Of a DNA stretch of 55,539 bases, positions 32,960 to 47,579 are shown piece by piece. The number at the start of each line of letters is the position of its first letter. Position 1 is the stretch's first letter. The stretch comes from Acidimicrobiales bacterium (GTDB lineage: Bacteria > Actinomycetota > Acidimicrobiia > Spongiisociales > ZC4RG35). Below the pieces are notes generated by a model. That model searched no databases and had not been told where the DNA came from. It worked only from the letters and a program-made list of their open reading frames with translations. The position numbers were made by a program, and so were the translations under genes. The stretch covers positions 1 to 55,539 of the forward strand of contig JAGFIR010000193.1 of assembly GCA_024103415.1 (NCBI GenBank), given 5' to 3'.

Positions 32960-33733
32960 TCACGCGTCTCCCCGCTGCTTGTGGACGCGGCCCTCGACTC
33001 CGTGGAGGGAGAGGCCGGAGCCGGCGCCGTAACGCACCTTGGTCATTTCGGCGAGGATGGAGACCGCCACCTCCTGGGGGGTCTCGGCGCCGATGTCGAG
33101 ACCGATCGGCGAGTGGATGGTGCCGATCTCGTCCTTGGTGAAGCCAAGGTCTGTGAGGCGCTCGACGCGGAGGTTGTGGGTCCGCCTGCTTCCCATGGCC
33201 CCGATGTAGCGGGGACGGCCCTTGAGGGCTGACTCGAGGGCGGGGGTCTCGTGCCGCGGATCGTGGGACAACACGACGACCCACGTCCGCCGGTCGAAGG
33301 TGAGTTGATCCATCAGGTCGCGGGGCCATCCGAGCAGAACGCGATGCGCCTGGGGGAACCTCTCCTTGGTGGCGAACATCGGCCGGGAGTCGATGACCGT
33401 GACCCGGTAACCCATCTGGGTTGCGAAGGAGCAGAGGGCCTGCCCGATGTGGACGGCGCCGAAGACGTAGAGGTCGGGTGGGGGCGCCAGGGTCTCGATG
33501 AACACCTGGTGATCGCCGTATTCGAGGGCACGGTGCTGTTCGTGTTCCATGAGCGTCACGGCGTCCTCGCTCACGTCCGACACCAGTTCGTCGGGGAGGC
33601 CGCCGGCGATGATGGCCCCGTGCTCGTTCATGACCGCTTTGGCGCCGATGGCGGGCCCGGAGACGACGGTCGCCACCGAGCCGAACTGCTCGGCCTCGAG
33701 GAGGGAGGCTATGGCGTCGTTGACGTCACTCAC
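32960..33733 (-). CDS. XdhC/CoxI-family maturation factor, C-terminal (Rossmann-like) part
   Basis: GTG at 33733 overlaps the stop of the upstream XdhC N-domain ORF (GTGA). [33 protein letters not shown] and [21 protein letters not shown]. Confidence 0.75.
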
Positions 33734-34038
33734 CAGGGCTCGATGAAGACGTCGATCGTGCCGCCGCACGACATCCCGACCGCGAAGGCGTCCTCGTCGG
33801 CGATCCCGTAGGTGACCATCTTCGGCTCACCGGAGGCGATCACCTCCTGGGCGTGGAGATACACGTCGTTCTCCACGCAACCCCCGCTCACCGACCCCTC
33901 CATGTCGCCGGCGTCGGTGACCAGGAATTTGGAGCCTTCGGGCCGTGGGGCGCTCCCGTGAACACGGACGACGGTGGCGACCGCCACCTTCTTGCCTTCG
34001 CCGACCCAGCGGTTGCGAAGCGCCAGCTGACTTCTCAC
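33730..34038 (-). CDS. XdhC/CoxI-family N-terminal domain protein (stand-alone)
   Basis: [40 protein letters not shown] prefer GTG 34038 because the extension to ATG 34116 is rich in rare A/T-ending codons. Confidence 0.65.
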
Positions 34039-34178
34039 GATTCCCAGCCTACTCCCCGGACGCGGTCCCGAGCAGGCGACATCCCCGGGCTCGGGGTGTC
34101 TAGGCTGGGTTGACAAGACAAGCGGCTGTTCAGTGCCAGTGAACGGCAGCGCCTCGTTCTCAGGGGAGGTATCAGAGA

Positions 34179-34475
34179 GTGGCAGTGGAGTCGTCCGGGC
34201 ACAGCCGGGGCAACCCCCGTATCTACGAATTGATCGAGGGTGCCCCCAAGACGGGCAAGAGCCCCACCATCTGGGAGTGGCCGCAGCTCGTCGAATATTT
34301 CAAGGTCGCCGGCCAGCCAGTCCAGGGGCCCTGGCCGCCTCACCAGGAGCCCAGACCCGACCCGGACGCCGAGTCGCTGCCGGTCGCGGTTCCCGATCCC
34401 CAGTCTCCCTACGCCGCCGGGCCGGCGGGGACATCGTCCGAGACCTCAGGGCCGGCCGGGACCCCCGAGAGCTGA
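34179..34475 (+). CDS. Hypothetical 98-aa protein with Pro-rich tail, first gene of the cox operon
   Basis: GTG start 9 nt after 'aggggagg'. High GC3. Ends 10 nt before the coxM GTG. No family recognised. Confidence 0.5.
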
Positions 34476-34485
34476 GGAGGCCGTC

Positions 34486-35361
34486 GTGTACCCACCCAGA
34501 TTCGAGTACGAGGCCCCGGAGACGGTGGCCGAGGCCGTGGGGCTACTCGTCGAAGGACACGGCAGCGCCAAGGTCCTCGCCGGTGGCCAGAGCCTCATCC
34601 CCATGATGAAGACGCGCTTCGCATCACCCGAGATGCTCGTCGACATCAACGGCATCTCCGATCTCGAGTACCACCGGCGCGACGCCGACGGATCGATCCG
34701 CGTCGGGGCGCTCTGCCGGCACGCCACCCTCGAGCAGTCGCAGGTGCTCGCCGACCATCAACCGACCATGGCGGCGGCTTCGGCCCTCGTCGCCGACCCG
34801 ATCGTCCGCAACCGCGGCACCCTCGTCGGCTCTCTGTGCCATGCCGATCCGCAGGGTGACTGGGCGGCCGTTATGGCCTCCCTCGGGGCGTCCGTGATCG
34901 CACAGGGGCCCACCGGCGAGCGGGTCATCCCCGTCCAGGAGTTCGCGGTCGGGCCGTTCCAGAACGCCCTCGCCTACGACGAGATCGCGGTGGCCGCCGT
35001 CGTCCCGCCCCCCAAGGGCAAGCCCGAGGGTGGCTATCTCAAGATGGAGCGCCGTGTCGGCGACTTCGCCACCGCCGGTGTGGCCGTTTCGCTGGACCGC
35101 TCGGCGGGCGGTGTCGCCCGGGCGGGCATCGCTCTCACCGGTGTCGGTCCCCGCACGATCGTCGCCGAGGAGGCCGCGGCCATCCTCGTCGAACGGGGTC
35201 TCGACCCCGATTCCATCGCCGAGGCGGCCCGCGCCGCGGCGGGTGCCGCTCAGCCGAAGACCGATCACCGGGGTACCGCCGAGTACAAGCGGCACCTGGT
35301 TGAAGTGTTCACCAGCAGGATCCTGAAGAGGATCGCCGGATCGAGTGAGGAGGCGGCCTGA
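34486..35361 (+). CDS. coxM: Aerobic CO dehydrogenase medium (FAD-binding) subunit
   Basis: GTG start after 'gaggagg'. (V)[28 protein letters not shown]. 291 aa. Confidence 0.85.
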
Positions 35362-35903
35362 TGGGCAGCTTGTTCGAAGTCGTCCCCGCAGACACCCAGG
35401 ACGAGGTGCCCCGTCGCAGGGTCACGGTGACCGTCAACGGAACGCCCATGTCGGCGGTGATCGAGACGAGGCTCCTGCTCGTCCACCTGCTCCGTCAGGC
35501 CTTCAAGCTCACCGGAACCCACATGGGATGTGACACCACCCACTGCGGTGCGTGCACGGTGCTCTTCGACGGCAAGCCGGTGAAGAGCTGCACGATGCTC
35601 GCGGTCCAGGCCGACGGTCACGAGATCACGACGGTCGAAGGCCTCGCCGGGCCGTCCGAGCTCCACCCGATCCAGGAGGGCTTCAAGGAGGAGCACGGTC
35701 TCCAGTGCGGCTTCTGCACGCCGGGGATGATGCTCAGCGCCAAGGCGCTCCTCGATCGCAATCCCGACCCGGACGAGGACGAGATCCGCTGGGCGTTGAG
35801 CGGCAACCTCTGCAGGTGCACCGGGTACCAGAACATCGTGAAGTCCGTGCAATGGGCGGCGCGCAAGATGAACCCCCAGCAGGGCCAGGAGGTGAGCGAA
35901 TGA
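35361..35903 (+). CDS. coxS: Aerobic CO dehydrogenase small ([2Fe-2S]) subunit
   Basis: [11 protein letters not shown] and CGFCTPG, then LCRCTGY. Confidence 0.9.
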
Positions 35904-38284
35904 CTGCTCTCGACGAGATCAAGATCGGCGGTCTCGGCGCCAGTCGCCGCCGGGTGGAGGACAACCGCTTCATCCGGGGCAAGGGCAACTATGTCGACGA
36001 CATCACCCTGCCGGGGATGCTGCACATGGAGATCCTCCGCTCGCCGGTGGCGCACGCGCGCATCGTCTCCATCGACACCTCCAAGGCCTGGGCGATGCCC
36101 GGTGTCCGTCTGGTCATCACGGGCGAGACGCTGGCCGCCCGCAACCTGGCGTGGATGCCGACCCTGTCGTACGACACACAGGCCGTCCTCGCCACCGACA
36201 AGGTGCGCTTCCAGGGCCAGGAGATCGCGGCGGTCATCGCGGACGACCCCTACACGGCAAAGGACGCCTGCGAGGCGATCGTCGTCGAGTACGAGCCGCT
36301 CCCCGTCATGGTCAACCCCTACCAGGCAATGGAGGACGGGGCGGAGCGGATCCGCGACGACAAGGAGAACCAGCCGGACAACGTGATCTACGACTGGGAG
36401 GTCGGCGACCGCGACGGCACCGAGCGGGCGTTCGCCGAGGCGGACTTGGTCTCCAAGATCCAGCTCCACTATCCGCGGTCCCACCCGTCGCCGATCGAGA
36501 CCTGCGGGTCGATCGCCGACTTCAACCGGGCCACACAGAAGCTCACGGTCTACATGACCACCCAGGCGCCCCACATCATCCGGGCGGCGGTGGCCATGGT
36601 CGCCGAATTGCCGGAGCAGATGATCCGCATCATCGCCCCGGACATCGGCGGCGGCTTCGGGAACAAGGTCCCGGTGTACCCGGGCTATGTGGTGTCGATC
36701 CTGGCATCGATCCTGTTGGAGAAGCCGGTGAAGTGGATCGAGGACCGCACCGGCAACCTGATCTCCACCGGCTTCGCCCGGGACATCTACCTCGAGGGCG
36801 AGATGGCCCTCCGGAAGGACGGGAAGATCCTCGGCGTCCGGATGAACTGCATCGCCGACCACGGCGCCTTCTTCTCGGACGCCCAGCCGTCGAAGTTCAA
36901 GATCGGGCTCCTGCACTCGGCATTCGCCTGTTACGACATCCCGGCGGCGCATCTCACCGCCCGGGGCGTCTACACCAACAAGGCGCCTGGCGGTGTGGCC
37001 TACAGGTGCTCATTCCGGGTCACCGAGGCCATGTTCTTCCAGGAGCGGATGGTGGAGACCGCGGCGATCGACCTGGGCATGGACCCGGCGGAGATCCGCA
37101 GGGTCAACTTCGTCCGGGACGACGACTTCCCGCACCGCACCGCCTTCGGGTTCCTCACCGACTCGGGTCAGTACACGAAGTGCCTCGACCTTGGTCTCGA
37201 GGCGATCGGCTACGACACGTTCCGGCAGGAGCAGGAGGAGGCCCGCAAGCGGGGCCGTCTCCTCGGCATAGGCATCTCCACGATGACCGAGCCGCTGGGC
37301 GCCGGGAACAGCCGGGAGTTCGACATCCTCGGGATCAAGATGTTCGACTCCGCCGAGCTGCGGATCCACATGACGGGGAAGGCACTGCTCCGCACCGGCG
37401 CCCGCAGCCAGGGCCAGGGGCACGAGACCACCTGGGCCCAGATCGTGGCCCACGAGCTCGGCCTTCCCGCCGAGGACGTGACGGTCGAGGAGGGTGACAC
37501 CGACACCGCGCCCTTCGGGATGGGCACATACGCCTCCCGGAGCACGCCGGTGGCCGGCGCGGCCATCTCCATGGCCGCCCGCAAGATCCGGGCGAAGGCG
37601 CGAAAGATCGCGGCGCATCTCCTCGAGGTGTCCGAAGAGGACGTCGAGTGGGAGCTGGGCCGGTTCTATGTGCGGAGCCGTCCTGAGCAGGGCGTGACGA
37701 TCCAGGAAGCAGCCATGGCCGCCTACTCCAACATGCCCGACGGCATGGAGCCCGGTCTGGAGGCCATCGCCTACTACGACCCGCCCAACCTGACGTGGCC
37801 GTTCGCCGCGTACATCGCCAAGGTCGAGGTCGACCCCGAGACCGGTGTCTGGGACGTCCTGCGGATGGTGGCGGTCGACGACTGCGGCGTCCGGATCAAC
37901 CCGATGATCGTGGAGGGCCAGATCATGGGCGGCCTCACCGAGGCCTACGCCATGGCCAGCATGCAGTACATCACCTTCGACGCCGAGGGCAACTGCATCG
38001 GCTCCAACTTCACCGACTACCTCCTGCCGACGGCATGGGAGACGCCGGGGTTCGAGCTCCACGAGGTCGTCACCCCGTGCCCGCACCATCCGATCGGTGC
38101 CAAGGGGATCGGCGAGTGCGCCGCGGTCGGCGGACCGGCGGCGTTCGTCAACGCCGTCATCGACGCGGTCAAGCACCTGGGCGTGAAGAACATCGACATG
38201 CCCGTGCTTCCCGACCGGGTCTACGAGGCGATCAAGACGGGCAAGGACGTGAGCGGAGCGCCCCCGGTGAGGACGGACGGATGA
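35900..38284 (+). CDS. coxL: Form I aerobic CO dehydrogenase large (Mo-Cu) subunit
   Basis: 794 aa from the ATG overlapping the coxS stop (ATGA). The active-site loop VAYRCSFR (36998-37018) is the form I signature. The coxM-S-L gene order is also form I. Confidence 0.88.
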
Positions 38285-39240
38285 GCGCACGAGCCGAGGC
38301 CTGGGAAGTCCTCGAACTGGCCACGGAGATGGCTCGCCAGGGCGAGATGTTCGCCCTGGCGACAGTGGTGTGGCGGCAGGGGCCTTCCTCGGGTCATCAG
38401 GGCTCCCGGGCCATCATCACCCCGGCGGGTGAGATCCACGGCTGGATCGGCGGCGCTTGCGCCGAACCGGTGGTGCTCGGCGAGGCGAGGCGAGCGCTCG
38501 AGGACGGGGAGCCCCGGCTCATCCTCCTCGGCACCCGGGACGCATTCGGCGAGATGCCCGAGGGGATGCTGGTCGTCCCCATGTCGTGTCAATCGGAGGG
38601 CGCCATGGAGGTGTACATCGAACCCGTGCTGCCATCGCCGCAGGTGATCGTCGTGGGCGACAGCCCGATGACGTCCACCCTGGTCGAGATGGCCGGTCTG
38701 CTCGGCTGGAAGGCGCAGCTCGTTTCCGCCACGGAACTGGACCCCAACCAGCTCGGACCGACCTCGGTCGTCGTGGTCGCCACCCAGGGACACGGCGACG
38801 AGGAGGCCGTCGAGGCGGCCGTGCGATCCAAGGCCGGCTTCGTGGGCCTGGTCGCGTCGGCGAGGAGGGCCGAGGCGGTCAAGGGTTACCTTGCCGACAG
38901 GGGAGTGGCCGACGACGCAATCGCCCGGATCAAGGCGCCGGTCGGCGTCGACCTCGGCCACACCAGCCACAAGGAGATGGCGGTGTCGATCCTCGCCGAA
39001 CTGGTCCGCCTCCGGGCGAGTGGCGATCTCTTCGCGGCGGCGCCGCAGCGAGCCCGTCTCCAGATGATCGAGCCGGAGACCGCCATCGATCTGGTCTGCG
39101 GGATGACGGTGGCCGCCGACGAGTCGAGCCGGCCCTACGAGTATGGGGGCACCACCTACTACTTCTGCTGTCCGGGCTGTCGGGCGGCGTTTGTGAAGGA
39201 CCCCGAGTCGTACATCGCGGAGGGCGCGCATGCAGATTGA
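38281..39240 (+). CDS. XdhC-family maturation factor fused to a C-terminal YHS/TRASH-type metal-binding domain
   Basis: ATGA overlap with coxL. N-terminal domain LATVVWRQGPSSGHQGSRAII...GWIGGACAEP, Rossmann part VIVVGDSPM and GLVASARRA...PVGVDLGH. C-terminus DLVCGMTVAADESSRPYEYGGTTYYFCCPGCRAAFVKDPESY. Confidence 0.8.
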   Translation: MSARAEAWEVLELATEMARQGEMFALATVVWRQGPSSGHQGSRAIITPAGEIHGWIGGACAEPVVLGEARRALEDGEPRLILLGTRDAFGEMPEGMLVVPMSCQSEGAMEVYIEPVLPSPQVIVVGDSPMTSTLVEMAGLLGWKAQLVSATELDPNQLGPTSVVVVATQGHGDEEAVEAAVRSKAGFVGLVASARRAEAVKGYLADRGVADDAIARIKAPVGVDLGHTSHKEMAVSILAELVRLRASGDLFAAAPQRARLQMIEPETAIDLVCGMTVAADESSRPYEYGGTTYYFCCPGCRAAFVKDPESYIAEGAHAD

Positions 39241-39796
39241 GAACACGTTCGAGGTACCCCAGTCGGTCGAGGAGACCTGGGCGTTCTTCCAGGACATCCC
39301 GGGGGTAGCCGCGTGCCTCCCCGGCGCCAACCTGGACCGCCAGGTGGGCCCCAACGAATACGAGGGCACCGTCACGATCGCGCTCGGCCCGGTGCGCATG
39401 GACTTCGCCGGCCGTGCCGAGATCGTCGAACGGGACGACGCCACCAAGACGATCGTGGTCAGGGCCAACGGCGCCGACAAGAAGGGTCGGGGCCAGGCCG
39501 CTATGGACATCAAGGCTCGGCTCGAGCCGGCGGGTGCTGGGACCAGGGTCCACCTGGGCCAGGACCTGCAGCTGGCGGGCGCCGCGGCCCAGTACGGACG
39601 GGGCATGGTCACCGACGTCAACCGGGTGCTCGTCGAGGACTTCGTGGAAAGCATGAAGGCGACCCTCGCGGGCGAGGCCCCGGGTGCGAAGTCACGCTCC
39701 GCCGGCGGCCTGATCATCGGCCTGAGAGCGATGTGGATGGCCCTGAAGCGGGTCGCCGCACGGTTCTTCCTTCCCTACGACCCGGCCCGAGTTTGA
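39230..39796 (+). CDS. coxG: CoxG-like SRPBCC protein with hydrophobic C-terminal tail
   Basis: MQIENTFEVPQSVEETWAFFQDIPGVAACLPGA...GTVTIALGPVRMDFAG, typical CoxG. The extra C-terminus GGLIIGLRAMWMALKRVAARFF is hydrophobic. 11-nt overlap with the previous gene. Confidence 0.85.
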   Translation: MQIENTFEVPQSVEETWAFFQDIPGVAACLPGANLDRQVGPNEYEGTVTIALGPVRMDFAGRAEIVERDDATKTIVVRANGADKKGRGQAAMDIKARLEPAGAGTRVHLGQDLQLAGAAAQYGRGMVTDVNRVLVEDFVESMKATLAGEAPGAKSRSAGGLIIGLRAMWMALKRVAARFFLPYDPARV

Positions 39797-39808
39797 GGAG
39801 GTGACGGA

Positions 39809-40063
39809 TTGACCTGGTGGTGGATAGGCAACGTGATCCTGGTGGTGGCGGTGGTCCCCGTGCTGGTGGCCCTGCTCAACCGGGTTCTGGCCGCACTGGA
39901 ACGGATCCGGAAGGCCTCCGACGAGATCCTCGATGGCGGGGTCGGGATCATCGAGGAAGTGGACCGGGTGCCCCAGCTCCTGGACACGACGGACAAGACC
40001 ATCGCCGAAGTGGCGAACGGCGCCGTGAGGTACGCCGGTTCGGTCGCCAAGCTGCTGGATTGA
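39809..40063 (+). CDS. Small single-pass membrane protein P1 (84 aa), member of a 5-gene tandem paralog array
   Basis: TTG start after 'gaggaggtg'. TM WWWIGNVILVVAVVPVLVALL, then the helical tail NRVLAALERIRKASDEILDGGVGIIEEVDRVPQLLDTTDKTIAEV. Confidence 0.7.
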   Translation: MTWWWIGNVILVVAVVPVLVALLNRVLAALERIRKASDEILDGGVGIIEEVDRVPQLLDTTDKTIAEVANGAVRYAGSVAKLLD

Positions 40064-40076
40064 GAGGGGAGGAGCT

Positions 40077-40304
40077 TTGCCAGCTGCAGCAATAGTGACC
40101 CTGGTGATCGGCGGGCTGATCATCGCCGCCGCCGCCATCGGGCTGATCCGGGTCATCGGTCACCTCCGGGCGACCCTGGCCACCCTCGACGCCCTCAACG
40201 GTGGCGTCCAAGTGATCGCCGATCGGACCGCCCCGGTGGCGCCGGTCGTCGAGTCGGTCAACACCAGCTTGAAGCCCGTCAGCGATTTCGCCGAGTCGAT
40301 CTGA
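40077..40304 (+). CDS. Small single-pass membrane protein P2 (75 aa)
   Basis: TTG start after 'ggggaggag'. TM IVTLVIGGLIIAAAAIGLI, tail RVIGHLRATLATLDALNGGVQVIADR... It aligns with P1 (L-x-R-V-[LI]..L...D.L-[DN]-GGV-x-[IV]-I). Confidence 0.7.
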   Translation: MPAAAIVTLVIGGLIIAAAAIGLIRVIGHLRATLATLDALNGGVQVIADRTAPVAPVVESVNTSLKPVSDFAESI

Positions 40305-40314
40305 GGAGGGGGAG

Positions 40315-40575
40315 ATGCTGTTTCCAACAACCGCAGACGCCCCCTGGCTGGTCGGCTTCCTGATCGGCATCGCCATCGTCCTGGTGGTGGTGGCGCTCGT
40401 CCTGCCGATCCTGGTGCTCGCCAAGCGCATCGGTGATCGGGCCGGGTCGATCAACGCAGGTCTGGAGCGGGCGGTGGAGCACACCGCGGCGCTCAAGGGC
40501 CTGGAGCAAACGAACACGATGGCCATCAACGTGATCCAGGGTCTGGAGCGCGGCCGGAAGCGACTGGGAGGATGA
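40315..40575 (+). CDS. Small single-pass membrane protein P3 (86 aa)
   Basis: ATG after 'gaggaggggga'. TM WLVGFLIGIAIVLVVVALVLPILVL followed by a helical tail. Confidence 0.7.
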   Translation: MLFPTTADAPWLVGFLIGIAIVLVVVALVLPILVLAKRIGDRAGSINAGLERAVEHTAALKGLEQTNTMAINVIQGLERGRKRLGG

Positions 40576-40865
40576 CCGTGGTCTTCGGATTGACAGAAAC
40601 TCAAGAGTCGCTCTGGATGACCGCCAACATCCTGGGCCTGATCGTGGTGGTGGCGGTGGCTGCCCTGCTCACGATCCTCGTGATGCTGGTGCGGAAGATC
40701 GAGCAGAGGGTCGAGACCATCAAGACGACCCTCAGGGCAGCGGAGGCGAACACCGCTGACGCCGCTCTGCTCGACACGACCGCGAGGGGCGTGGATCTGG
40801 TGCTGGTGGAGGGCCTGGAGCATCACCTGTTCCTGGGCCGGGTCCTGGACAAGGTGCGCAAATGA
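40572..40865 (+). CDS. Small single-pass membrane protein P4 (97 aa)
   Basis: ATGA overlap with P3. TM ANILGLIVVVAVAALLTILVML. The tail contains LLDTT, as in P1. Confidence 0.7.
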   Translation: MTVVFGLTETQESLWMTANILGLIVVVAVAALLTILVMLVRKIEQRVETIKTTLRAAEANTADAALLDTTARGVDLVLVEGLEHHLFLGRVLDKVRK

Positions 40866-41224
40866 GGAACCTCATCATCTTCACGGTCGTCGACATCGTC
40901 CTGCTCATCGCCGGGCTGGCGGTCTATCTCTGGATCGTGGGATCGCAGTTGAAGCGGGTCGCCGCCGGTCTGGAGGAGTGCCGCGACCTGGTGAGCCAGA
41001 TCCGGGCCAACGCCGAGCCGATCGAGGCCAACCTGGAGCACATCAACCACACCGGCAGGGTCATCGCCGGTGCGTTGCCACTGCTCTACGACATGGCCGA
41101 GGGAATCGTCAGCGGTGCCACCTTCGATCCCGAAGAGGCGCATGCCGAGCGGGGTCCCGCTCTCCCGGCGTCGGGCACCCGGCGTTCCCGGCTTCTCGAC
41201 AGCGTCGGTTACCACCCGGAATAG
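40862..41224 (+). CDS. Small single-pass membrane protein P5 (120 aa)
   Basis: ATGA overlap with P4. TM LIIFTVVDIVLLIAGLAVYLWIV, a helical tail and a basic/disordered C-terminus. Confidence 0.65.
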   Translation: MRNLIIFTVVDIVLLIAGLAVYLWIVGSQLKRVAAGLEECRDLVSQIRANAEPIEANLEHINHTGRVIAGALPLLYDMAEGIVSGATFDPEEAHAERGPALPASGTRRSRLLDSVGYHPE

Positions 41225-41230
41225 CGCGGC

Positions 41231-41436
41231 TTATCGGGATTTCTCCCCCACGTAGCGGTCAGCGGAGTGGGGGAGTACCCCGTTAGGGGGAGGGGGCGCG
41301 GCCCGAAGGGCGGCAAGGAACCCACCGCCGGCGGCGGGGTTTATCGGGATCTCTCCCTCACGTAGCGGTCAGCGGAGTGGGGGAGTACCCCGTTAGGGGG
41401 GAGGGGGCGCGGCCCGAAGGGCCGCAAGGAACCCAC
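41231..41436. repeat. Type B GC-rich palindromic repeat, two tandem copies (period 110 bp)
   Basis: 'ttatcgggat(t/c)tctcc(c/t)(c)cacgtagcggtcagcggagtgggggagtaccccgttaggggg(g)agggggcgcggcccgaagggc(g/c)gcaaggaacccac' starts at 41231 and 41341. It sits at the junction of two convergent operons. Confidence 0.85.
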
Positions 41437-41449
41437 GGCTGGCAACCTG

Positions 41450-41500
41450 GCTCGTTCTCTCGACCCCCCTGTCGCGGACGCTCCAGGGGGACAAAGGCCG
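41450..41500. repeat. Solo terminal hairpin related to the type A element arm
   Basis: ccccctg-tcgcggacgctc-cagggggacaaaggcc resembles the right TIR/hairpin of the elements at 24739 and 48043. Confidence 0.5.
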
Positions 41501-41501
41501 G

Positions 41502-41945
41502 CTAATCGCCCGGTTGGCGGCCGGTGGTGAGCGGCCCGGTGGTCGGCGCCTGGTACTGGCCGATCCAGGTGTCCTCCCACGCCGGGTCGTATTGCTCGGC
41601 ATTGCAGCCGGGCCGGTACACCGAGATCAACTCCCGGCAGATCAGCTCCCGGTGTGACCGGGTACCGCCGGGGACCTCGTAGTAGGCGACGTGGAGGGCG
41701 TAGCGATCGGCCCGCTGCAGCCAGCACGGTGCCGCCTCGTGGGCGAACGGGAACCCCGCCTGCGAGAGGTCGTCGGCGTGTCCGACGTAGATGACCCCGT
41801 AGTGCTCCGGCTTCCGCTCCGGCTCGGGCTTGTAGAGGACGGTGAACACGGCCCCGACCTTCGGGGGCGTCCAGCCGGCCAGCAAGCGGGGACCTTCGAA
41901 CGGGTACCCGGCGAGGGACCCGAGTCGGATCACATCGGCTCCCAC
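41502..41945 (-). CDS. Hypothetical 147-aa protein with a possible GIY-YIG-like motif pattern
   Basis: High GC3. AVFTVLYK...YGVIYVGHADDL...R.H.ELICRELISVYRPGCNAEQY loosely fits GIY-(10)-YIG...R...E..LI...P.yN. Last gene of the minus-strand cox accessory operon; the start overlaps the upstream gene by 16 nt. Confidence 0.5.
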   Translation of the reverse strand: MGADVIRLGSLAGYPFEGPRLLAGWTPPKVGAVFTVLYKPEPERKPEHYGVIYVGHADDLSQAGFPFAHEAAPCWLQRADRYALHVAYYEVPGGTRSHRELICRELISVYRPGCNAEQYDPAWEDTWIGQYQAPTTGPLTTGRQPGD

Positions 41946-42229
41946 TCGTAGTCGATCTCTTCATCCTCCCGGATGGTCTCGATCTGGGTGATCGGCCACA
42001 CCGGGAGCCCGGCGGTATGAACCGCATGGTTGAAGATCTCCACGGCGCGCTGTGCCGCCTCCTCGGAATCCGCGCCTTCGACGATGATCTGGGCCCCGTA
42101 GGACGCGGTCCCCATCCCCGATGCGATCCCGCCCGCCGTGGCCACGGCGTCGGCCAGTTCGACCACCTCGTCGAGTTCGATGATGCGGTCGCCCTCCGCC
42201 ATGATCGAGACACTCCAGCGGTGGGTCAT
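41930..42229 (-). CDS. Hypothetical 99-aa acidic protein
   Basis: Internal ATG (MTHRWSVSIMAEGDRIIELDEVVELADAV...) of ORF 41930..42502. ATGA overlap with the coxE-like stop. High GC3. Confidence 0.55.
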   Translation of the reverse strand: MTHRWSVSIMAEGDRIIELDEVVELADAVATAGGIASGMGTASYGAQIIVEGADSEEAAQRAVEIFNHAVHTAGLPVWPITQIETIREDEEIDYEWEPM

Positions 42230-43377
42230 CGCAGCTCCGGAAGGTGCTCGGCGAATGACTCGAGACTCGCCAGGTCGTGCCCCGATGTGATCAGGTCGAC
42301 ATGCGGGGCCGCCACCATCATCCCGAGCGTCGACGGGACGAAGTTGCGGTCGGCCCCCTTGTGGGGGTTCACCCACACGATCTTGTGACTGAGTCGGCTC
42401 ATCTTCTCCATGGCTCGGGCCAGCAAAGCAGGATCTCCGCGATCCAGCCCGTCGGAGCAGATGACGACGACTGCCCCCCGGCTCATGCCCTTGCGACCCC
42501 ACCCCCTCACGAAGTCGTCGAGTGACCGGCCGATCTGGGTGCCGCCCTCCCAGTCGAACACCGACCGGGCGGCATCGTCGAGAGCGTCGTCGACCCGTCG
42601 CCGCTCCAGGGACTTGGTGATGCGGGTGAGCCGGGTGCCGAAGCAGAACACCTCGACCCGATGGGCGGCTTGCTTGGTCGAATAGGCGAACTGGAGCAGG
42701 GCACGGGAGTAGTCCGCCATCGACCCGGACACGTCGAGGATCAGGACCAACGGTCGGACCTTCCGCCGCCGTCGCCGCCAGTAGAGCTCGGGTGGCGCTT
42801 CGAGTGACCGCATCGCCGTGCGCGCGGTGCGACGCATGTCCGGTCGGGAGCCCGCCGGCGCCTTCTCGGTCCGCCGGGATCGGCGGGTCGGCGGCACCAT
42901 CCGGACCTTTTTCATGATCCGCCTGATGGCCGCCATCTCCTCTTCGGTGCAGGCGGCGAACGACTTGTTCCGCCAGATCTCCACCCGGGAGGCCACCAGC
43001 CCCATGTGGGTGCCCTCTTCTTCGTCGCCGGGCTCGGGCGGGACCACGTCGGGCACGTCGACGTCGATCTGACGGACGACCTGGGCGTGCTTGCGCATCA
43101 ACTGCCGGATCTCGTCGGGCATGGGGGACCCGTCGCCGAGGAAATACTCCCGGAACACCCGGTCATAGGTGGCCAGGTGCTGGCGGCGGGCGACGAGGGT
43201 TGTCCGCCCCGCCCAGAAGACGTCCACCAGATCGGCGGGGTCGAGGATGGCGACCGCGTCGCAGAACGTGAGCATCTCGCCCGAGCCCACCGGCATGCCG
43301 GCCTTGCGGAGGACGTCACCAAAGCCCGTCAGCGACGCGACGTACTCGCGTGCCGGGAGGGTGCCCTGGTCAGCCAT
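42226..43377 (-). CDS. coxE: VWA-domain CoxE-like protein (copy 1)
   Basis: Internal ATG (MADQGTLPAREYVASLTGF...). VWA MIDAS LVLILDVSGSM near the C-terminal half. 8-nt overlap with the upstream MoxR gene. Confidence 0.8.
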   Translation of the reverse strand: MADQGTLPAREYVASLTGFGDVLRKAGMPVGSGEMLTFCDAVAILDPADLVDVFWAGRTTLVARRQHLATYDRVFREYFLGDGSPMPDEIRQLMRKHAQVVRQIDVDVPDVVPPEPGDEEEGTHMGLVASRVEIWRNKSFAACTEEEMAAIRRIMKKVRMVPPTRRSRRTEKAPAGSRPDMRRTARTAMRSLEAPPELYWRRRRRKVRPLVLILDVSGSMADYSRALLQFAYSTKQAAHRVEVFCFGTRLTRITKSLERRRVDDALDDAARSVFDWEGGTQIGRSLDDFVRGWGRKGMSRGAVVVICSDGLDRGDPALLARAMEKMSRLSHKIVWVNPHKGADRNFVPSTLGMMVAAPHVDLITSGHDLASLESFAEHLPELR

Positions 43378-44257
43378 CGACCGCGATCCGGTCGAGCGCT
43401 CCCAACACGGTCTGCATGTCGTCGTGGTCCTTGACCACCGCTCCCAGGGTGTCCCGGATGGACTCCTTGTCCGGATCGTCGACACCGAGCACCGACATCG
43501 TCTCCACCCAGTCGAGGGTCTCCGCCACCCCGGGCGGCTTGTCCAGCTCGAGCGACCGCAGACGGTTGACCATCTCCACGATCTTCCGCGCCAGCGTCTC
43601 GGTGGTCGCGGGAGCCCGTGTCATCACGATCTCGACCTCGCGTTCGGGGTCGGGGTAGCCCACCCAGTGATAGAGACAGCGACGCTTCAGCGCGTCGTGC
43701 AGCTCCCGGGTGCGGTTGGAGGTGAGCACCACGAGCGGGGGTGCCTCTGCGGCCACCGTTCCCAGCTCCGGGATCGTGATCTGGAAGTCGGAGAGCAACT
43801 CGAGCAGGAAAGCCTCGAACTCGTCGTCCGCCCGGTCGATCTCGTCGATGAGGAGGACGGCGCGGTCCCCCCTCCGGATGGCGGCGAGGAGGGGGCGCTC
43901 GAGGAGGAACTTGGGACCGAACAGCTTGTCGACCGACTCGTCGGTGGCGAGCTCCGCCTCGGAGAGCGCCCGGATCTGCAGCATCTGCCGGGCGTAGTCC
44001 CACTCGTAGAGGGCCTGGTTGGTGTCGATCCCCTCGTAGCACTGGAGGCGGATCAGCTCGCGGTCGAGCACCGACGCCAGCGCCTTGGCCAGCTCCGTCT
44101 TCCCGACACCGACCTCGCCTTCCAGCAGGAGGGGCTTGCCCAGGGTCAGCGAGACGTACGCGGCGGTGGCCAGACCGCGGTCGGCGAGGTACCCGCCGGT
44201 CTCGAGCAGGCGGGTGAGGTCGGAGACGGACGAGAGGGAGGCGTTCTCGGGGGCCAC
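43370..44257 (-). CDS. coxD: MoxR-type AAA+ ATPase, CoxD-like (copy 1)
   Basis: Walker A LLEGEVGVGKTELAKALA, IRLQCYEGID, Walker B VLLIDEIDRADDEFEAFLLE. Confidence 0.85.
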   Translation of the reverse strand: MAPENASLSSVSDLTRLLETGGYLADRGLATAAYVSLTLGKPLLLEGEVGVGKTELAKALASVLDRELIRLQCYEGIDTNQALYEWDYARQMLQIRALSEAELATDESVDKLFGPKFLLERPLLAAIRRGDRAVLLIDEIDRADDEFEAFLLELLSDFQITIPELGTVAAEAPPLVVLTSNRTRELHDALKRRCLYHWVGYPDPEREVEIVMTRAPATTETLARKIVEMVNRLRSLELDKPPGVAETLDWVETMSVLGVDDPDKESIRDTLGAVVKDHDDMQTVLGALDRIAVDG

Positions 44258-44264
44258 GGATGGC

Positions 44265-44513
44265 CTACCCGCGGGCTTCGCCGAAGACGAGGTCGGCCAG
44301 CGACCCTGCAGAGGGGTCGATCTTGCCTTCCCGCTCCAGGAGGGAACGCCAGGCCTGCTTGGTGTCGCCCTCGCCGAACCCGTCGAAGGAGACGTGGGTC
44401 ATGTTCCGGCAGACCTTGTTGGGGCTGCAGTCCTCGTCGAGGTCGATGGCGTCCGTCGCGGACTGCCAGACCGAAGCGACGATCTCTGGAGTGGACTTTT
44501 CTATCGGTGTCAC
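44265..44513 (-). CDS. Hypothetical 82-aa protein between the two MoxR/VWA modules
   Basis: GTG start, high GC3. Ends 7 nt before the coxD start. No family recognised. Confidence 0.5.
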   Translation of the reverse strand: MTPIEKSTPEIVASVWQSATDAIDLDEDCSPNKVCRNMTHVSFDGFGEGDTKQAWRSLLEREGKIDPSAGSLADLVFGEARG

Positions 44514-44550
44514 AGCTGCCCTCCTCTGCCGAGTCTACCCCCGACCGCCC

Positions 44551-45450
44551 CTACCTTCCACGAGTGGCGGCGATGGCCTCGGCGATGACGGAGACGGCGA
44601 TCTCGGCCGGTGTCGACGCCCCGATGTCGATGCCGGCCGGCCCGCTGATCCGGCTCAGGTCGGTGGCTCCCCGATAGGAGAGCCAGTCCGCCCGGTTCTC
44701 CTGCATCTTCCGGGAGCCGACCGATCCGATGTAGCCGGCCCGGCTGTCGAGGGCGGCCATGAGAGCGCCCCCGGCGAGCTCGAGATCGTGGGCGGCCACC
44801 ACCACCATGTCGGCCTCCGTCAGCGAGGCGATCACCCCTTCGGCGTGGCTGACCGTGTTGTGCTGGCTTGGCTGCCAACCGAGGACCCCGGCGATCTCCA
44901 TGAGCGCGTCGGCGATGGGGGAGGATCCGACCACGACGAGACGGGCGGCGGCCCTGAACACGTTGATCACCTGATCCTCGGTGATCCGGCCACCGCCCGG
45001 TGAGGCAAATGCCTCCGCGACGGCCGGCGGCAGGTCGGGGTCGTCCTCTGCGTACACATCGAATGACTCGATCGCGTCGGCCTGGAGACGGCCCACGAGG
45101 CAGAAGCCGATGCGCTCGTTGGCGAGGTCCCAGAGGCGCTCCGGGAGCAACTCGGCGGGTGCGATCGCCGCCGTGACCTTTCCGGGCCCACCCAGACCGG
45201 CGATGAGGGCGTCGACCTCGGAGATCTCGGCTTCGACCAGCCTGCCGGTCGTCCCGACCCCGGCGTGTTCGGACAGAGCGGCGTCGATGACGCTGGTGTC
45301 GATGCCTCCGAGACGTCCACCGCCGGGCGTGAAGGCGACGGCGCGGTTGGGGTCTTCGAGGGGCACGCCGTCAACGGACACCACCCAGCCCACGTCGGCC
45401 CGGGTCCCCGAGCGAAGACATGCGGTGACGGGAAGAGCGATGTCGAACAC
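44551..45450 (-). CDS. XdhC-family protein (CoxF/CoxI-like), N-domain lacking the GGC motif
   Basis: Rossmann part LVVVGSSPIADAL, VVVAAHDLE, YIGSVGSRKM and PAGIDIGASTPAEIAVSVIAE. The N-domain has GGRLGGID instead of the S-GGC-xE found in the other two paralogs. Confidence 0.75.
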   Translation of the reverse strand: MFDIALPVTACLRSGTRADVGWVVSVDGVPLEDPNRAVAFTPGGGRLGGIDTSVIDAALSEHAGVGTTGRLVEAEISEVDALIAGLGGPGKVTAAIAPAELLPERLWDLANERIGFCLVGRLQADAIESFDVYAEDDPDLPPAVAEAFASPGGGRITEDQVINVFRAAARLVVVGSSPIADALMEIAGVLGWQPSQHNTVSHAEGVIASLTEADMVVVAAHDLELAGGALMAALDSRAGYIGSVGSRKMQENRADWLSYRGATDLSRISGPAGIDIGASTPAEIAVSVIAEAIAATRGR

Positions 45451-45471
45451 GGTGGCGAGTCTAAGAGGCGC

Positions 45472-46587
45472 CTAGGAGGGGCTGTTCATGGCCATCGTGT
45501 CCAGAAGTGACACCAGACCTGCGAGGTCGTCGACGCTCGCCGCGGGAAGCAATCGGTCTATGTGGGGGAGAACCGCCTTCATGCCCCGGGTCTCCGGGCG
45601 ATAGTCCTGGCGGGCGGCCAGCGGGTTGAGCCAGATCAGCCGGTGGACCGAGCGTGAGAGCCGTCCTGCCTCCCGGGCGAGGAGCTCCGGGTCCCCGCAA
45701 TCCCAGCCGTCGGAAAGGACGAGTGCGACGGGACCGCCCCTCGCCAGTCTCCGGCTCCACTGGCGGTTCCAGGCCGCAAGGGCGTCTCCGATCTTCGTGC
45801 CTCCCGACCAGTCGAGAACCGTGCCGCCCACCGATGCGAGGGCGGACTTCACGTCCCGGCGGTCCAGATCGTCGGTGATCCGGGTGAGCCGGGTGGAGAA
45901 GGTGAACACCTCCACCGATCCGAGGTGCTGGCGGGCGGCATGGGCGAAGACGAGGAACAACTCGGCGTACCTCTCCATCGACCCCGAGATGTCGGCGATG
46001 ATGATCAGCGGGCGCTGACGGACCCGTCGGCGCCGCATCTCGATGGGGAGAAGGTCGCCACCAGGTCCAACGCTGCGACGGAGGGTGCGCCGCATGTCGG
46101 GACGCTGTCCGCCCCCATCGGGGATCCAGCGTCGGGTGCGGGTAACCGGGGGACGCCAGAACATGGTCGTGACGAGACGTCTCGCCTCGGCGAGTTGGTC
46201 CTCGTCCATGTCTGCGAAGTCGCGTGCGGCCAGACGCTCGGTGGCCGAGGACCCGGTCCGGGTGTCGACGTCGCCCACCGGGGCGGGCTCGGCGGGAGCG
46301 AAGAGCGGCTTGACCGCCTTCGGCTGCGTGTACTCGGGTGAGTAGACGGGGGCGTCCTCTTCGGCGACGCGGTGGAAGAAGGCGTCGAAGACCGTCTCGA
46401 AGGTTTCGATCTGGCCCGGGTCCGTGATGGTCAGGGACCTGAACGCGGCTCTCACCGACGGCTCGTGGGCGGGGTCGACCAGAGTCAGGGCCTGGCCCAT
46501 GTGGGCGATCTGGTCGGGTGTGACCCCGAGGCCTGCGTCCCGAAGTTCCCGGGCGAAGGAGGTCAGGTCACCGAGAGTGGTGGTCAT
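45472..46587 (-). CDS. VWA-domain CoxE-like protein (copy 2)
   Basis: 371 aa. Collinear with copy 1 (LTSFARELRDAGLGV vs LTGFGDVLRKAGMPV; MIDAS LIIIADISGSM). Confidence 0.8.
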   Translation of the reverse strand: MTTTLGDLTSFARELRDAGLGVTPDQIAHMGQALTLVDPAHEPSVRAAFRSLTITDPGQIETFETVFDAFFHRVAEEDAPVYSPEYTQPKAVKPLFAPAEPAPVGDVDTRTGSSATERLAARDFADMDEDQLAEARRLVTTMFWRPPVTRTRRWIPDGGGQRPDMRRTLRRSVGPGGDLLPIEMRRRRVRQRPLIIIADISGSMERYAELFLVFAHAARQHLGSVEVFTFSTRLTRITDDLDRRDVKSALASVGGTVLDWSGGTKIGDALAAWNRQWSRRLARGGPVALVLSDGWDCGDPELLAREAGRLSRSVHRLIWLNPLAARQDYRPETRGMKAVLPHIDRLLPAASVDDLAGLVSLLDTMAMNSPS

Positions 46588-47495
46588 CCGACCAGTTCTT
46601 CGACGCCCGCCTCCCTGACGGCCTCGATGTCGTCCTTGTACTTGAGGACCACTCCGAGAGTGCGGTCGATCAGCTCGGGGGTGAGCGACCCGGAATCGAG
46701 GAGACGGAGCGACTCGGCCCAGTCCAGCGTCTCGGCGACACCGGGTGGCTTGAACAGGTTCATCGAACGCAGACGCGCCATGGCAGAGGCCAACGAGCCC
46801 GCCAGCGCCTCGTCGATGCCGGGGACCTTGCGGCGGACGATGGCGGTCTCGGTGTCCCGATCGGGGTAGTCGATCCAGTGGTAGATGCAGCGACGCTTCA
46901 GGGCGTCGTGGATCTCGCGCGTCCGGTTGGACGTGATGATCACGATTGGCGGGTCGTCGGCGGAGATCGTCCCGATCTCGGGGATGGTCACCTGGAAATC
47001 GGACAGCAGCTCGAGGAGGAAGGCCTCGAACTCCTCATCGGCCCGATCCAGCTCGTCGATCAGGAGCACGGCGCGTCGCCCATTGCGACTCGCCTCGATC
47101 GCCTGCAGGAGTGGGCGTGCGACGAGAAAGTCCCGGCTCATGATGTCCTTGGAGCCGACGTCGCCGCCCCGGGCCTCGACGAGGCGGATCTCGAGCATCT
47201 GGCGGGCGTAGTCCCACTCGTATAGGGCCTGGCCCACGTCCAGTCCCTCGTAGCACTGGAGACGGATCAGTTGCTCGCCTGTCATGTCGCTGAGGACTTT
47301 GGCGACCTCGGTCTTGCCGACACCCGGCTCGCCTTCGAGGAAGAGGGGCCGACCCAACTGCAGGGCGAGGTGGATGGCGACGACCAGGTCGTCTCCCGCC
47401 AGGTAGTTGCGGGCTTCCAGTGCGCCCGCCAATTCCTCGATCCGAGTGGGGATCACACCTCCCAGGCTAACCCCCGAACGTAAGAGGAATCTCAT
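46584..47495 (-). CDS. MoxR-type AAA+ ATPase, CoxD-like (copy 2)
   Basis: FLEGEPGVGKTEVAKVLS, IRLQCYEGLD, VLLIDELDRADEEFEAFLLE. Closely parallels copy 1. The start is uncertain: ATG 47495 is followed by rare codons, and an in-frame GTG about 39 nt downstream is possible. Confidence 0.8.
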   Translation of the reverse strand: MRFLLRSGVSLGGVIPTRIEELAGALEARNYLAGDDLVVAIHLALQLGRPLFLEGEPGVGKTEVAKVLSDMTGEQLIRLQCYEGLDVGQALYEWDYARQMLEIRLVEARGGDVGSKDIMSRDFLVARPLLQAIEASRNGRRAVLLIDELDRADEEFEAFLLELLSDFQVTIPEIGTISADDPPIVIITSNRTREIHDALKRRCIYHWIDYPDRDTETAIVRRKVPGIDEALAGSLASAMARLRSMNLFKPPGVAETLDWAESLRLLDSGSLTPELIDRTLGVVLKYKDDIEAVREAGVEELVG

Positions 47496-47579
47496 GCCCT
47501 TCTCAGGGTGGTCTTACGCGGGTTTCCGAAGCTGATCTCAGAAGTTGCCAGAGAAGCACTCAGAGGAAAGGAGCCCGAG

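Follow-up and report, generated by a model that had tools for sequence, protein, structure and literature searches.

A CoxF-type maturation protein with a C-terminal YHS domain, encoded directly after form I coxL, as a candidate copper carrier for carbon monoxide dehydrogenase

A 55,539-nucleotide stretch of DNA from an Acidimicrobiales bacterium (assembly GCA_024103415.1, contig JAGFIR010000193.1; the whole stretch is called the window below) carried, directly after the large-subunit gene coxL of a form I molybdenum-copper carbon monoxide dehydrogenase (CODH), a gene for an XdhC-family protein with a C-terminal YHS domain. The fusion is probably the CoxF factor of form I [MoCu]-CODH with a tethered copper-capturing module that feeds the copper-insertion step. 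A large part of the CO in the atmosphere is removed by form I CODH. For the route of copper to the unique Mo-S-Cu centre of this enzyme, the only model comes from one alphaproteobacterium and builds on weak phytase and RGD motifs that were not conserved here.

The fusion protein and CoxF of Oligotropha (Afipia) carboxidovorans OM5 were each other's best match, at 152 bits and 36% identity across residues 6-268 of CoxF. The best match of the fusion protein on pHCG3 was CoxF, and CoxF matched it best of the four XdhC-like open reading frames (ORFs) of the window; the match to O. carboxidovorans CoxI reached 22% identity and 53 bits only. The three XdhC-like loci of the window were separated in this way: the YHS protein corresponded to CoxF, the split ORFs upstream of coxM to CoxI, and the protein at 44551-45450 on the reverse strand to neither. 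With the YHS protein, the NCBIfam XdhC equivalogs stayed far under their cut-offs (35 vs. 161.6 bits for TIGR02964; 103 vs. 350 bits for XdhC_rel_AOR, NF045664). Because the match to CoxF was reciprocal, the equivalogs were below cut-off, and CoxI paired with another gene of the window, the protein is identified by its sequence as the CoxF counterpart. A generic XdhC, or molybdenum cofactor (Moco) chaperone, as the primary identity was rejected on the same equivalog scores and on the best match of CoxI to the split XdhC.

Both CoxF-type motifs, G-W-I-G-G-x-C and C-x-S-x-G-x-[ML], were present in the window protein. The former occurred in 120/120 YHS-type, 34/35 HMA-type and 120/120 bare CoxF proteins, and the C-x-S-x-G core (C103 in the window protein) was conserved across all three architecture classes. 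The RGD motif was found in 100/120 bare CoxF proteins vs. 0/120 YHS-type and 0/35 HMA-type proteins, and the histidine acid phytase motif RHGxR in 7/120 bare vs. 0/120 YHS-type proteins; the window protein had neither. By these counts, the RGD and phytase motifs do not define the wider CoxF family.

The identity matters because CoxF is the factor that is genetically tied to copper. Carbon monoxide dehydrogenase purified from O. carboxidovorans coxF::km contained sulfurated molybdenum, [Mo(=O)OH(2)SH], but no copper (PMC4240915), and Pelzmann et al. proposed CoxF as a copper escort with the suspected site M107-CPSHGTM (PMC4240915). The first-pass annotation of this DNA had taken the protein for a Moco chaperone whose fusion would join two maturation steps. 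Its place in the XdhC family stood; the joining did not, as the protein was the CoxF counterpart and CODH of the coxF mutant was sulfurated and copper-free, and the fusion would therefore reinforce one step, copper insertion, rather than join Moco and copper handling. By analogy with the MocA-XdhC-YHS triple fusions found elsewhere, XdhC-YHS proteins may nevertheless have some link to Moco.

Pfam matched XdhC_CoxI (PF02625; E 1e-17, 64.3 bits vs. a cut-off of 24.3) and XdhC_C (PF13478; E 7e-23, 81.9 bits vs. a cut-off of 29.7) in the expected N-to-C order. The YHS profile (PF04945) scored 50.8 bits with the whole protein (E 1.6e-13; gathering score 30.3) and 54.2 bits with the tail alone. The annotated fusion of an XdhC protein to a YHS domain is bona fide, and the tail that had been quoted for it, DLVCGMTVAADESSRPYEYGGTTYYFCCPGCRAAFVKDPESY, was found in the protein exactly as given. 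TRASH_HVO_1752_C (PF24273) was borderline on the tail (27.1 vs. a cut-off of 27), PF08394 was under its cut-off, and zf-FCS and Arc_trans_TRASH gave weak matches. The four-cysteine pattern of TRASH sensu stricto (C-x2-C-x19-22-C-x3-C) was not found in the tail, which read D270-x2-C273-x22-C296-x3-C300 with Asp in place of the first Cys; as a sequence, the tail belongs to the YHS subtype. Residues D270, C273, M275, C296 and C300 were invariant in both alignments (A1 and A2). The pair 'CC', earlier taken as a conserved feature, was rejected as a motif: C296 was kept, and C297 varied (C/A/S/G/R) in the alignment and in the loci.

The full-length AlphaFold2 model had a mean predicted local distance difference test score (pLDDT) of 80, with the linker disordered at residues 253-265 and the tail well predicted. 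In Foldseek, the XdhC body of the model matched 2WE8/2WE7 (E 1e-13 to 4e-15, template modelling score ~0.5) and 3ON5 (E 1e-10). The tail modelled alone reached a pLDDT of 86, and its neighbours were the YHS domains of diiron monooxygenase hydroxylases, the TRASH domain of ZMYM5 and ribosomal L24e (probability ≤0.98); all E values were >0.1, because the domain is tiny (~45 residues). The linker varied in length among homologues and had His-rich inserts in some of them, e.g., HQHSSH and HHSGHGHEH (A1, L018, L032, L047, L053, L068). A Cys at the very C-terminus was common among the fusion homologues (...EARC, ...EVPC, ...ESRC, ...AC); the window protein ended in ...AHAD.

The same three Pfam domains were found in 119/120 best matches from a search of 5.8 billion proteins, and these homologues were annotated only as 'XdhC family protein' or 'xanthine dehydrogenase accessory factor'. 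At least 533 genomes had a relative (scan with one genome per species), the fusion was also present in thousands of metagenome clusters, and the YHS tail was present in 80/80 genome loci retrieved. There were 446 representatives of 50% clusters at E ≤1e-30, and most of the top 150 cluster representatives had the D-x2-C...F-C-x3-C ending, down to 34% identity. Close relatives belonged to Acidimicrobiia (closest among the matches listed: metagenome-assembled genome SMAG_U1987, 84%), Micromonosporaceae, Streptosporangiaceae and Nanopelagicales, with Angustibacter, Rhizocola, Amycolatopsis and Planosporangium among the cultured genera. The range of the fusion included Actinomycetota, Thermomicrobium, Deinococcus, haloarchaea and Paraburkholderia, and covered at least five bacterial phyla plus haloarchaea.

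In the window, coxL scored 1118.7 bits with TIGR02416 (cut-off 991.15), and this profile identifies it as a genuine form I [MoCu]-CODH gene. In the close loci, coxL was visible in 72/80, the remaining eight having too little upstream sequence, and in 72/72 a form I coxL immediately preceded the fusion gene on the same strand (as a separate ORF in 71; in the remaining locus, a single ORF ran through both genes). Distant fusions (~31-39% identity) were in cox clusters in 11/12 contexts, with L093 too short to judge. The fusion gene followed coxL on the Thermomicrobium roseum megaplasmid and in Natronorubrum bangense, was inside a form I cox cluster in Deinococcus sp. AJ005, occupied the CoxF slot after coxD-coxE in Paraburkholderia aromaticivorans, and was in cox clusters of metagenome contigs L085-L089, L094 and L095. 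Every readable coxL loop beside the distant fusions was form I (AYRCSFR, or TYRCSFR in L085). In L085, the YHS-bearing protein followed form I coxL, and the form II coxL of the same locus was flanked by a bare XdhC. The question raised in the first-pass annotation, whether the fusion neighbours the copper-containing form I or molybdoenzymes without copper, was thus answered in favour of form I in every readable case, L093 being left aside. The window, Natronorubrum, Paraburkholderia and L086 each had a separate CoxI-like XdhC in addition to the fusion.

In L093, a truncated upstream ORF (L093:1-162) ended in its own YHS, directly before the XdhC-YHS gene (P0268), which may be its tandem paralogue. 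Downstream, 3.1 kb of sequence had no cox genes; upstream, the contig ended.

The tail of the CoxF core varied. Among the 120 proteins closest to O. carboxidovorans CoxF, all alphaproteobacterial and 62-100% identical to it, none had a tail. In ~38/120 nearest relatives of the Rhodothermus marinus protein (including P0271-P0304), YHS was replaced by an HMA domain whose M-[ST]-C-x-x-C loop was intact, and the nearest non-HMA relatives of these HMA-type cores, 57-60% identical, bore YHS. The one HMA-type context examined, that of the R. marinus gene (L083:8001-9038, AP019797.1; L083/L084), was a form I cluster, coxMSL-G-D-E-[F-HMA]-mocA. Tandem YHS domains occurred in P0126, and a fusion with a CoxG fragment in P0261. 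Triple fusions of MocA (molybdenum cofactor cytidylyltransferase), XdhC and YHS were found in P0209, P0212, P0243, P0256 and L085:3940-5628. The L085 triple fusion, the one examined in context, came directly after the form I coxL with the TYRCSFR loop; the bare XdhC of the form II coxMSL in that locus was accompanied by coxE, coxD and coxG.

The fusion gene was an intact ORF of 319 codons, with coordinates and frame exactly as first annotated. Its ATG (38281-38283) overlapped the TGA of coxL (38282-38284) as ATGA, its own stop was the TGA at 39238-39240, and the ATG of coxG at 39230 lay 11 nt inside its 3' end. The stop-start coupling to coxL that had been claimed was present in the window; among relatives, 40/71 fusion genes overlapped the coxL stop and 68/71 were within 23 nt of it. 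The GC content by codon position (0.71/0.50/0.87) was typical for coding sequence (window GC 68%). Contigs of four more public runs covered coxL, the fusion gene and coxG with no indel. The fusion is not an artefact, because these contigs came from further runs and the same architecture was found in 119/120 homologues and 80/80 loci; an assembly or frameshift artefact was rejected on the indel-free contigs and the hundreds of homologues with the same architecture.

Sequence matching the window was present in compost, manure, sludge and soil metagenomes. In runs X10-X13 (compost, labelled TRANSCRIPTOMIC), coverage of window positions 33500-42500 was flat at ~10-12x over genes of both strands, with contigs of 60-120 kb; therefore, these runs behave like genomic DNA and are uninformative on co-transcription.

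Translation of the fusion protein would be in step with that of CoxL through the ATGA overlap. The XdhC-like body, with the conserved C60 and C103 (M-x-C-x-S-x-G loop), would act where Cu(I) joins the sulfurated Mo of the folded apo-CODH, with CoxD (AAA+) and CoxE (VWA) as putative partners at Cu(I) addition. The YHS domain, on a disordered linker of ~20 residues, would bind Cu(I) via C273, C296 and C300, plus D270 and/or M275, and from there the ion would go to the Cys site of the core or straight into the active-site funnel (Mo-SH and the Cys of AYRCSFR). The links of CoxF and of YHS/TRASH domains to copper come from the literature; Cu(I) binding by the tail and the direction of transfer are inferred.

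Copper-type YHS was carried by CoxF in at least five phyla and haloarchaea, it was swapped for a CopZ-like HMA, and all contexts read were form I; therefore, a 'Rosetta-stone' argument would assign the copper step to CoxF. The fusion is independent genomic support for CoxF as the copper donor. A wider reading is more tentative, at a little short of even odds: the YHS or HMA tail of CoxF would be the physiological Cu(I) donor site for [CuSMoO2], and tailed CoxF a self-contained, enzyme-specific metallochaperone and the majority form in nature. If so, the tail-less alphaproteobacterial CoxF, on which the phytate/RGD model is based, would be the exception, and recombinant Mo-Cu CODH, which is poorly loaded with copper, should take up more of it when tailed CoxF is co-expressed.

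Several points weigh against a copper-carrying tail. No solved structure with copper in a YHS/TRASH fold was found, and among PDB sequences there was no copper-bound YHS, the sole match being the phenol hydroxylase PHN (E 0.03). In the experiment with the YHS-bearing adenylyl cyclase of Mycobacterium phlei, the ion was Cu2+, not Cu+ (PMC4626032). L24e holds Cd2+ by four Cys, and the YHS of toluene-4-monooxygenase is metal-free (PMC4626032). The census was ranked by similarity to a query that was itself YHS-containing and CoxF-type, and the sample of contexts of distant members was small (12, of which one could not be assigned). The only genetically studied CoxF and its 120 nearest relatives lack the tail, which is therefore dispensable in some lineages. 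From the MocA-XdhC-YHS fusions, there is a hint of possible contact between the XdhC body and the cytidylated cofactor as well. The tails of Deinococcus sp. AJ005 (L091:6992-8053) and P0249 were degenerate, with the first Cys lost and F-T-C-x2-C in place of F-C-x3-C; such ligand loss in a few tails is easier to reconcile with docking than with a role in metal handling. The degenerate tails were kept in form I clusters.

One alternative is docking: the tail could be a structural zinc-ribbon (treble-clef) that docks CoxF to CoxL, CoxE or the membrane and takes no copper, any copper being on the core Cys/Met loop. The fold neighbours have no known copper role and include the Cd2+-binding and metal-free cases above, the weak zf-FCS and Arc_trans_TRASH matches point the same way, some tails were retained despite lost ligands, and bare CoxF functions with no tail. 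Docking alone, however, hardly explains the swap for an HMA domain with an intact M-x-C-x-x-C, and the Asp in place of the first Cys together with the conserved Met is the copper-responsive YHS type, not the four-Cys zinc type. The association with copper-containing form I only, the His-rich linkers and the existence of tandem YHS copies also argue against docking, which is considered unlikely. That the tail is instead a copper sensor or gate, switching on the XdhC body or CoxD/CoxE while the inserted copper comes from another carrier, is rather improbable. Both experimentally studied relatives, the M. phlei cyclase and CopR of Pyrococcus furiosus, are sensors, but the M-x-C-x-x-C HMA domain that replaces YHS here is best known as a carrier, in CopZ-type chaperones and at the N-termini of Cu-ATPases. 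The window had no separate copper chaperone gene, and the geometry of the tether and the core Cys suits a hand-over. The fusion protein could also be mainly a chaperone for handling or sulfuration of Moco (molybdopterin cytosine dinucleotide, MCD), like XdhC, with the tail serving a sulfur relay or binding Mo or another metal, and a loose or nil link to copper. Its membership of the XdhC family agrees with this, and the alternative stays alive because MocA-XdhC-YHS fusions exist; mocA was also directly downstream in several clusters. It is nonetheless very improbable, given the XdhC equivalogs far under cut-off, the separate CoxI-like XdhC beside the fusion, the Mo and sulfido/persulfido ligand kept without Cu in CoxF-less CODH, and the lack of any association with a Cu-free molybdoenzyme among the contexts read.

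The CoxF/XdhC family and the YHS domain were already known; as far as found, no description exists of their combination, of its breadth, of its specificity for form I among the contexts read, or of the way it alternates with HMA. Among open-access full texts, no paper was found on a fusion of XdhC with YHS or TRASH, or on YHS with CODH and coxL, and nothing relevant on CoxF as a 'copper chaperone'; this agrees with the statement in the first-pass annotation that the fusion is not known to have been characterised. A 2025 structural paper on the mycobacterial enzyme did not mention XdhC or CoxF. The residues singled out are C273, C296, C300, D270, M275, C60 and C103, and cultured bearers of a tailed CoxF are T. 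roseum (WP_143714800), R. marinus (HMA form), P. aromaticivorans (WP_035477365), Angustibacter, Rhizocola and Planosporangium. Production of active recombinant Mo-Cu CODH is a possible practical use.

Table 1. Features of the fusion gene and of the cox genes around it, in window positions.
Feature	Position	Strand	Basis
coxF-YHS gene, 319 aa	38281..39240	+	Translation; Pfam; reciprocal best match to O. carboxidovorans CoxF
XdhC_CoxI N-domain, aa 18-81, invariant motif G-W-I-G-G-x-C60	38332..38523	+	Pfam; alignment
M101-S-C103-Q-S-E-G-A-M109 loop	38581..38607	+	Alignment with M107-CPSHGTM, the suspected Cu site in O. carboxidovorans CoxF
XdhC_C Rossmann-like domain, aa 122-241	38644..39003	+	Pfam; AlphaFold2 model matches 2WE7/2WE8, 3ON5
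Flexible linker, ~aa 246-266, predicted disordered	39016..39078	+	pLDDT <50 at residues 253-265
YHS domain, aa 269-312; candidate ligands D270, C273, M275, C296, C300	39085..39216	+	Pfam; alignments A1/A2
coxL, form I Mo-Cu CODH large subunit, active-site loop VAYRCSFR	35897..38284	+	TIGR02416; Pfam
coxS, [2Fe-2S] small subunit	35361..35903	+	Pfam
coxM, FAD medium subunit, ORF as listed	34240..35361	+	Pfam match begins at ORF residue 87
coxG (SRPBCC), start overlaps the coxF-YHS end	39230..39796	+	Pfam
CoxI-like/generic XdhC, two overlapping ORFs: N-domain 33730-34116, Rossmann 32960-33769	32960..34116	-	Best window match of CoxI
coxD1 (MoxR AAA+) 43370-44257 and coxE1 (VWA) 42226-43485	42226..44257	-	Pfam; synteny kept in actinobacterial loci
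coxD2 46584-47513, coxE2 45472-46587, divergent XdhC_C-only protein 44551-45450	44551..47513	-	Domain search; synteny

The fusion gene shares its form I coxMSL cluster with coxD and coxE, both of which are on the opposite strand (Table 1). The cox island (~32960-47513) lay amid housekeeping genes (e.g., smc, ffh, rpsP, rimM, recG, ddl, plsX, fpg) of an Acidimicrobiia-like genome. Among the window genes scanned, no copper homeostasis genes and no separate copper chaperone were found elsewhere, and a motif scan found neither an HMA nor a further YHS in the window. A motif scan of 25 kb of the Oligotropha cluster found no stand-alone YHS or HMA gene that would offset the tail-less CoxF. The true start of coxM probably lies further downstream than that of the listed ORF. 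The Rossmann ORF of the split CoxI-like XdhC (32960-33769/33826) overlapped the N-domain ORF by ~40 nt in a different frame, and the same arrangement was found in L001 and L002; because it recurs there, the split does not come from a sequencing error; it is either a genuine pair of genes or a frameshift that has been conserved.

The window had one coxMSL and two coxD-coxE pairs, whose D proteins were ~55-58% and E proteins 36-39% identical. The divergent XdhC_C-only protein between the pairs was without the G-G-x-C motif. The D1-E1 pair was present in every actinobacterial locus that reached far enough, and the divergent XdhC likewise in those reaching it. After coxG, five tandem small ORFs were found on the forward strand at 39809-41224 (39809-40063, ~40080-40300, 40315-40575, 40572-40865 and 40862-41224), each of ~85-120 aa, with a single hydrophobic helix at the N-terminus and a tail that is helical. 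Three of the five were run against Pfam and NCBIfam with no match, and the same three were syntenic (48-95% identity) in most cox islands checked, including those of Acidimicrobiia, Rhizocola and Planosporangium. These small ORFs may be unrecognised membrane partners of CODH or CoxG. Between them and coxE1, an ORF at 41502-41960 on the reverse strand, with several Cys and no family match, was conserved at 61-88% identity in 8/8 actinobacterial loci reaching it.

Compared with known systems, the window protein is closest to CoxF of O. carboxidovorans (pHCG3, 280 aa). Both have two XdhC domains with G-W-I-G-G-x-C and C-x-S-x-G, and the gene of each sits in a form I coxMSL cluster that also has coxD, coxE and coxG. 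Unlike the window protein, O. carboxidovorans CoxF has no YHS tail and has R-G-D and the claimed phytase motif RHGxR, the basis for parts of the published model, and its putative copper loop reads N-M-C vs. M-S-C in the window. Its gene comes after coxE, as do those of Paraburkholderia, Rhodothermus and L086, and that of the window after coxL. XdhC of Rhodobacter capsulatus, CoxI and the Mycobacterium smegmatis homologue of Rv0376c (2WE7, 2WE8) share the fold and the Pfam domains. They are only 22-23% identical, are chaperones for Moco binding and insertion, have a C-G-G loop instead of C-x-S-x-G, and lack a metal-binding tail. A copy of this type is present in the window itself, at 32960-34116.

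Among YHS domains, that of the M. phlei class IIIc adenylyl cyclase is likewise C-terminal on a short linker and has the identical D-x2-C-x22-C-x3-C (D178, C181, C204, C208). It makes the enzyme specifically copper-activated, at 1-10 uM copper (PMC4626032). The cyclase YHS regulates a signalling enzyme, whereas the window YHS sits on an assembly factor of a metallocentre, with a carrier role proposed. The YHS domains of bacterial multicomponent monooxygenase hydroxylases (ToMOH, PHN, T4moH, MMOH) and the TRASH domains of L24e and ZMYM5 are similar in their small fold and were the top Foldseek matches; in contrast to the window tail, they have no copper link, several of them lack the Cys ligands through loss, and they are structural parts of large enzymes. 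Archaeal CopM (TRASH), bacterial CopZ and the N-terminal HMA of Cu-ATPases are, like the tail, small Cys-rich copper modules. They are stand-alone or exporter parts for detoxification, whereas the module here is fused to an enzyme-specific maturation factor. TRASH senses copper in archaeal CopR, and P. furiosus CopR without TRASH loses its copper sensitivity (PMC7830388). TRASH also takes the place of HMA in archaeal copper chaperones, CopM vs. CopZ (PMC7830388), and this interchange parallels the swap of YHS and HMA on CoxF.

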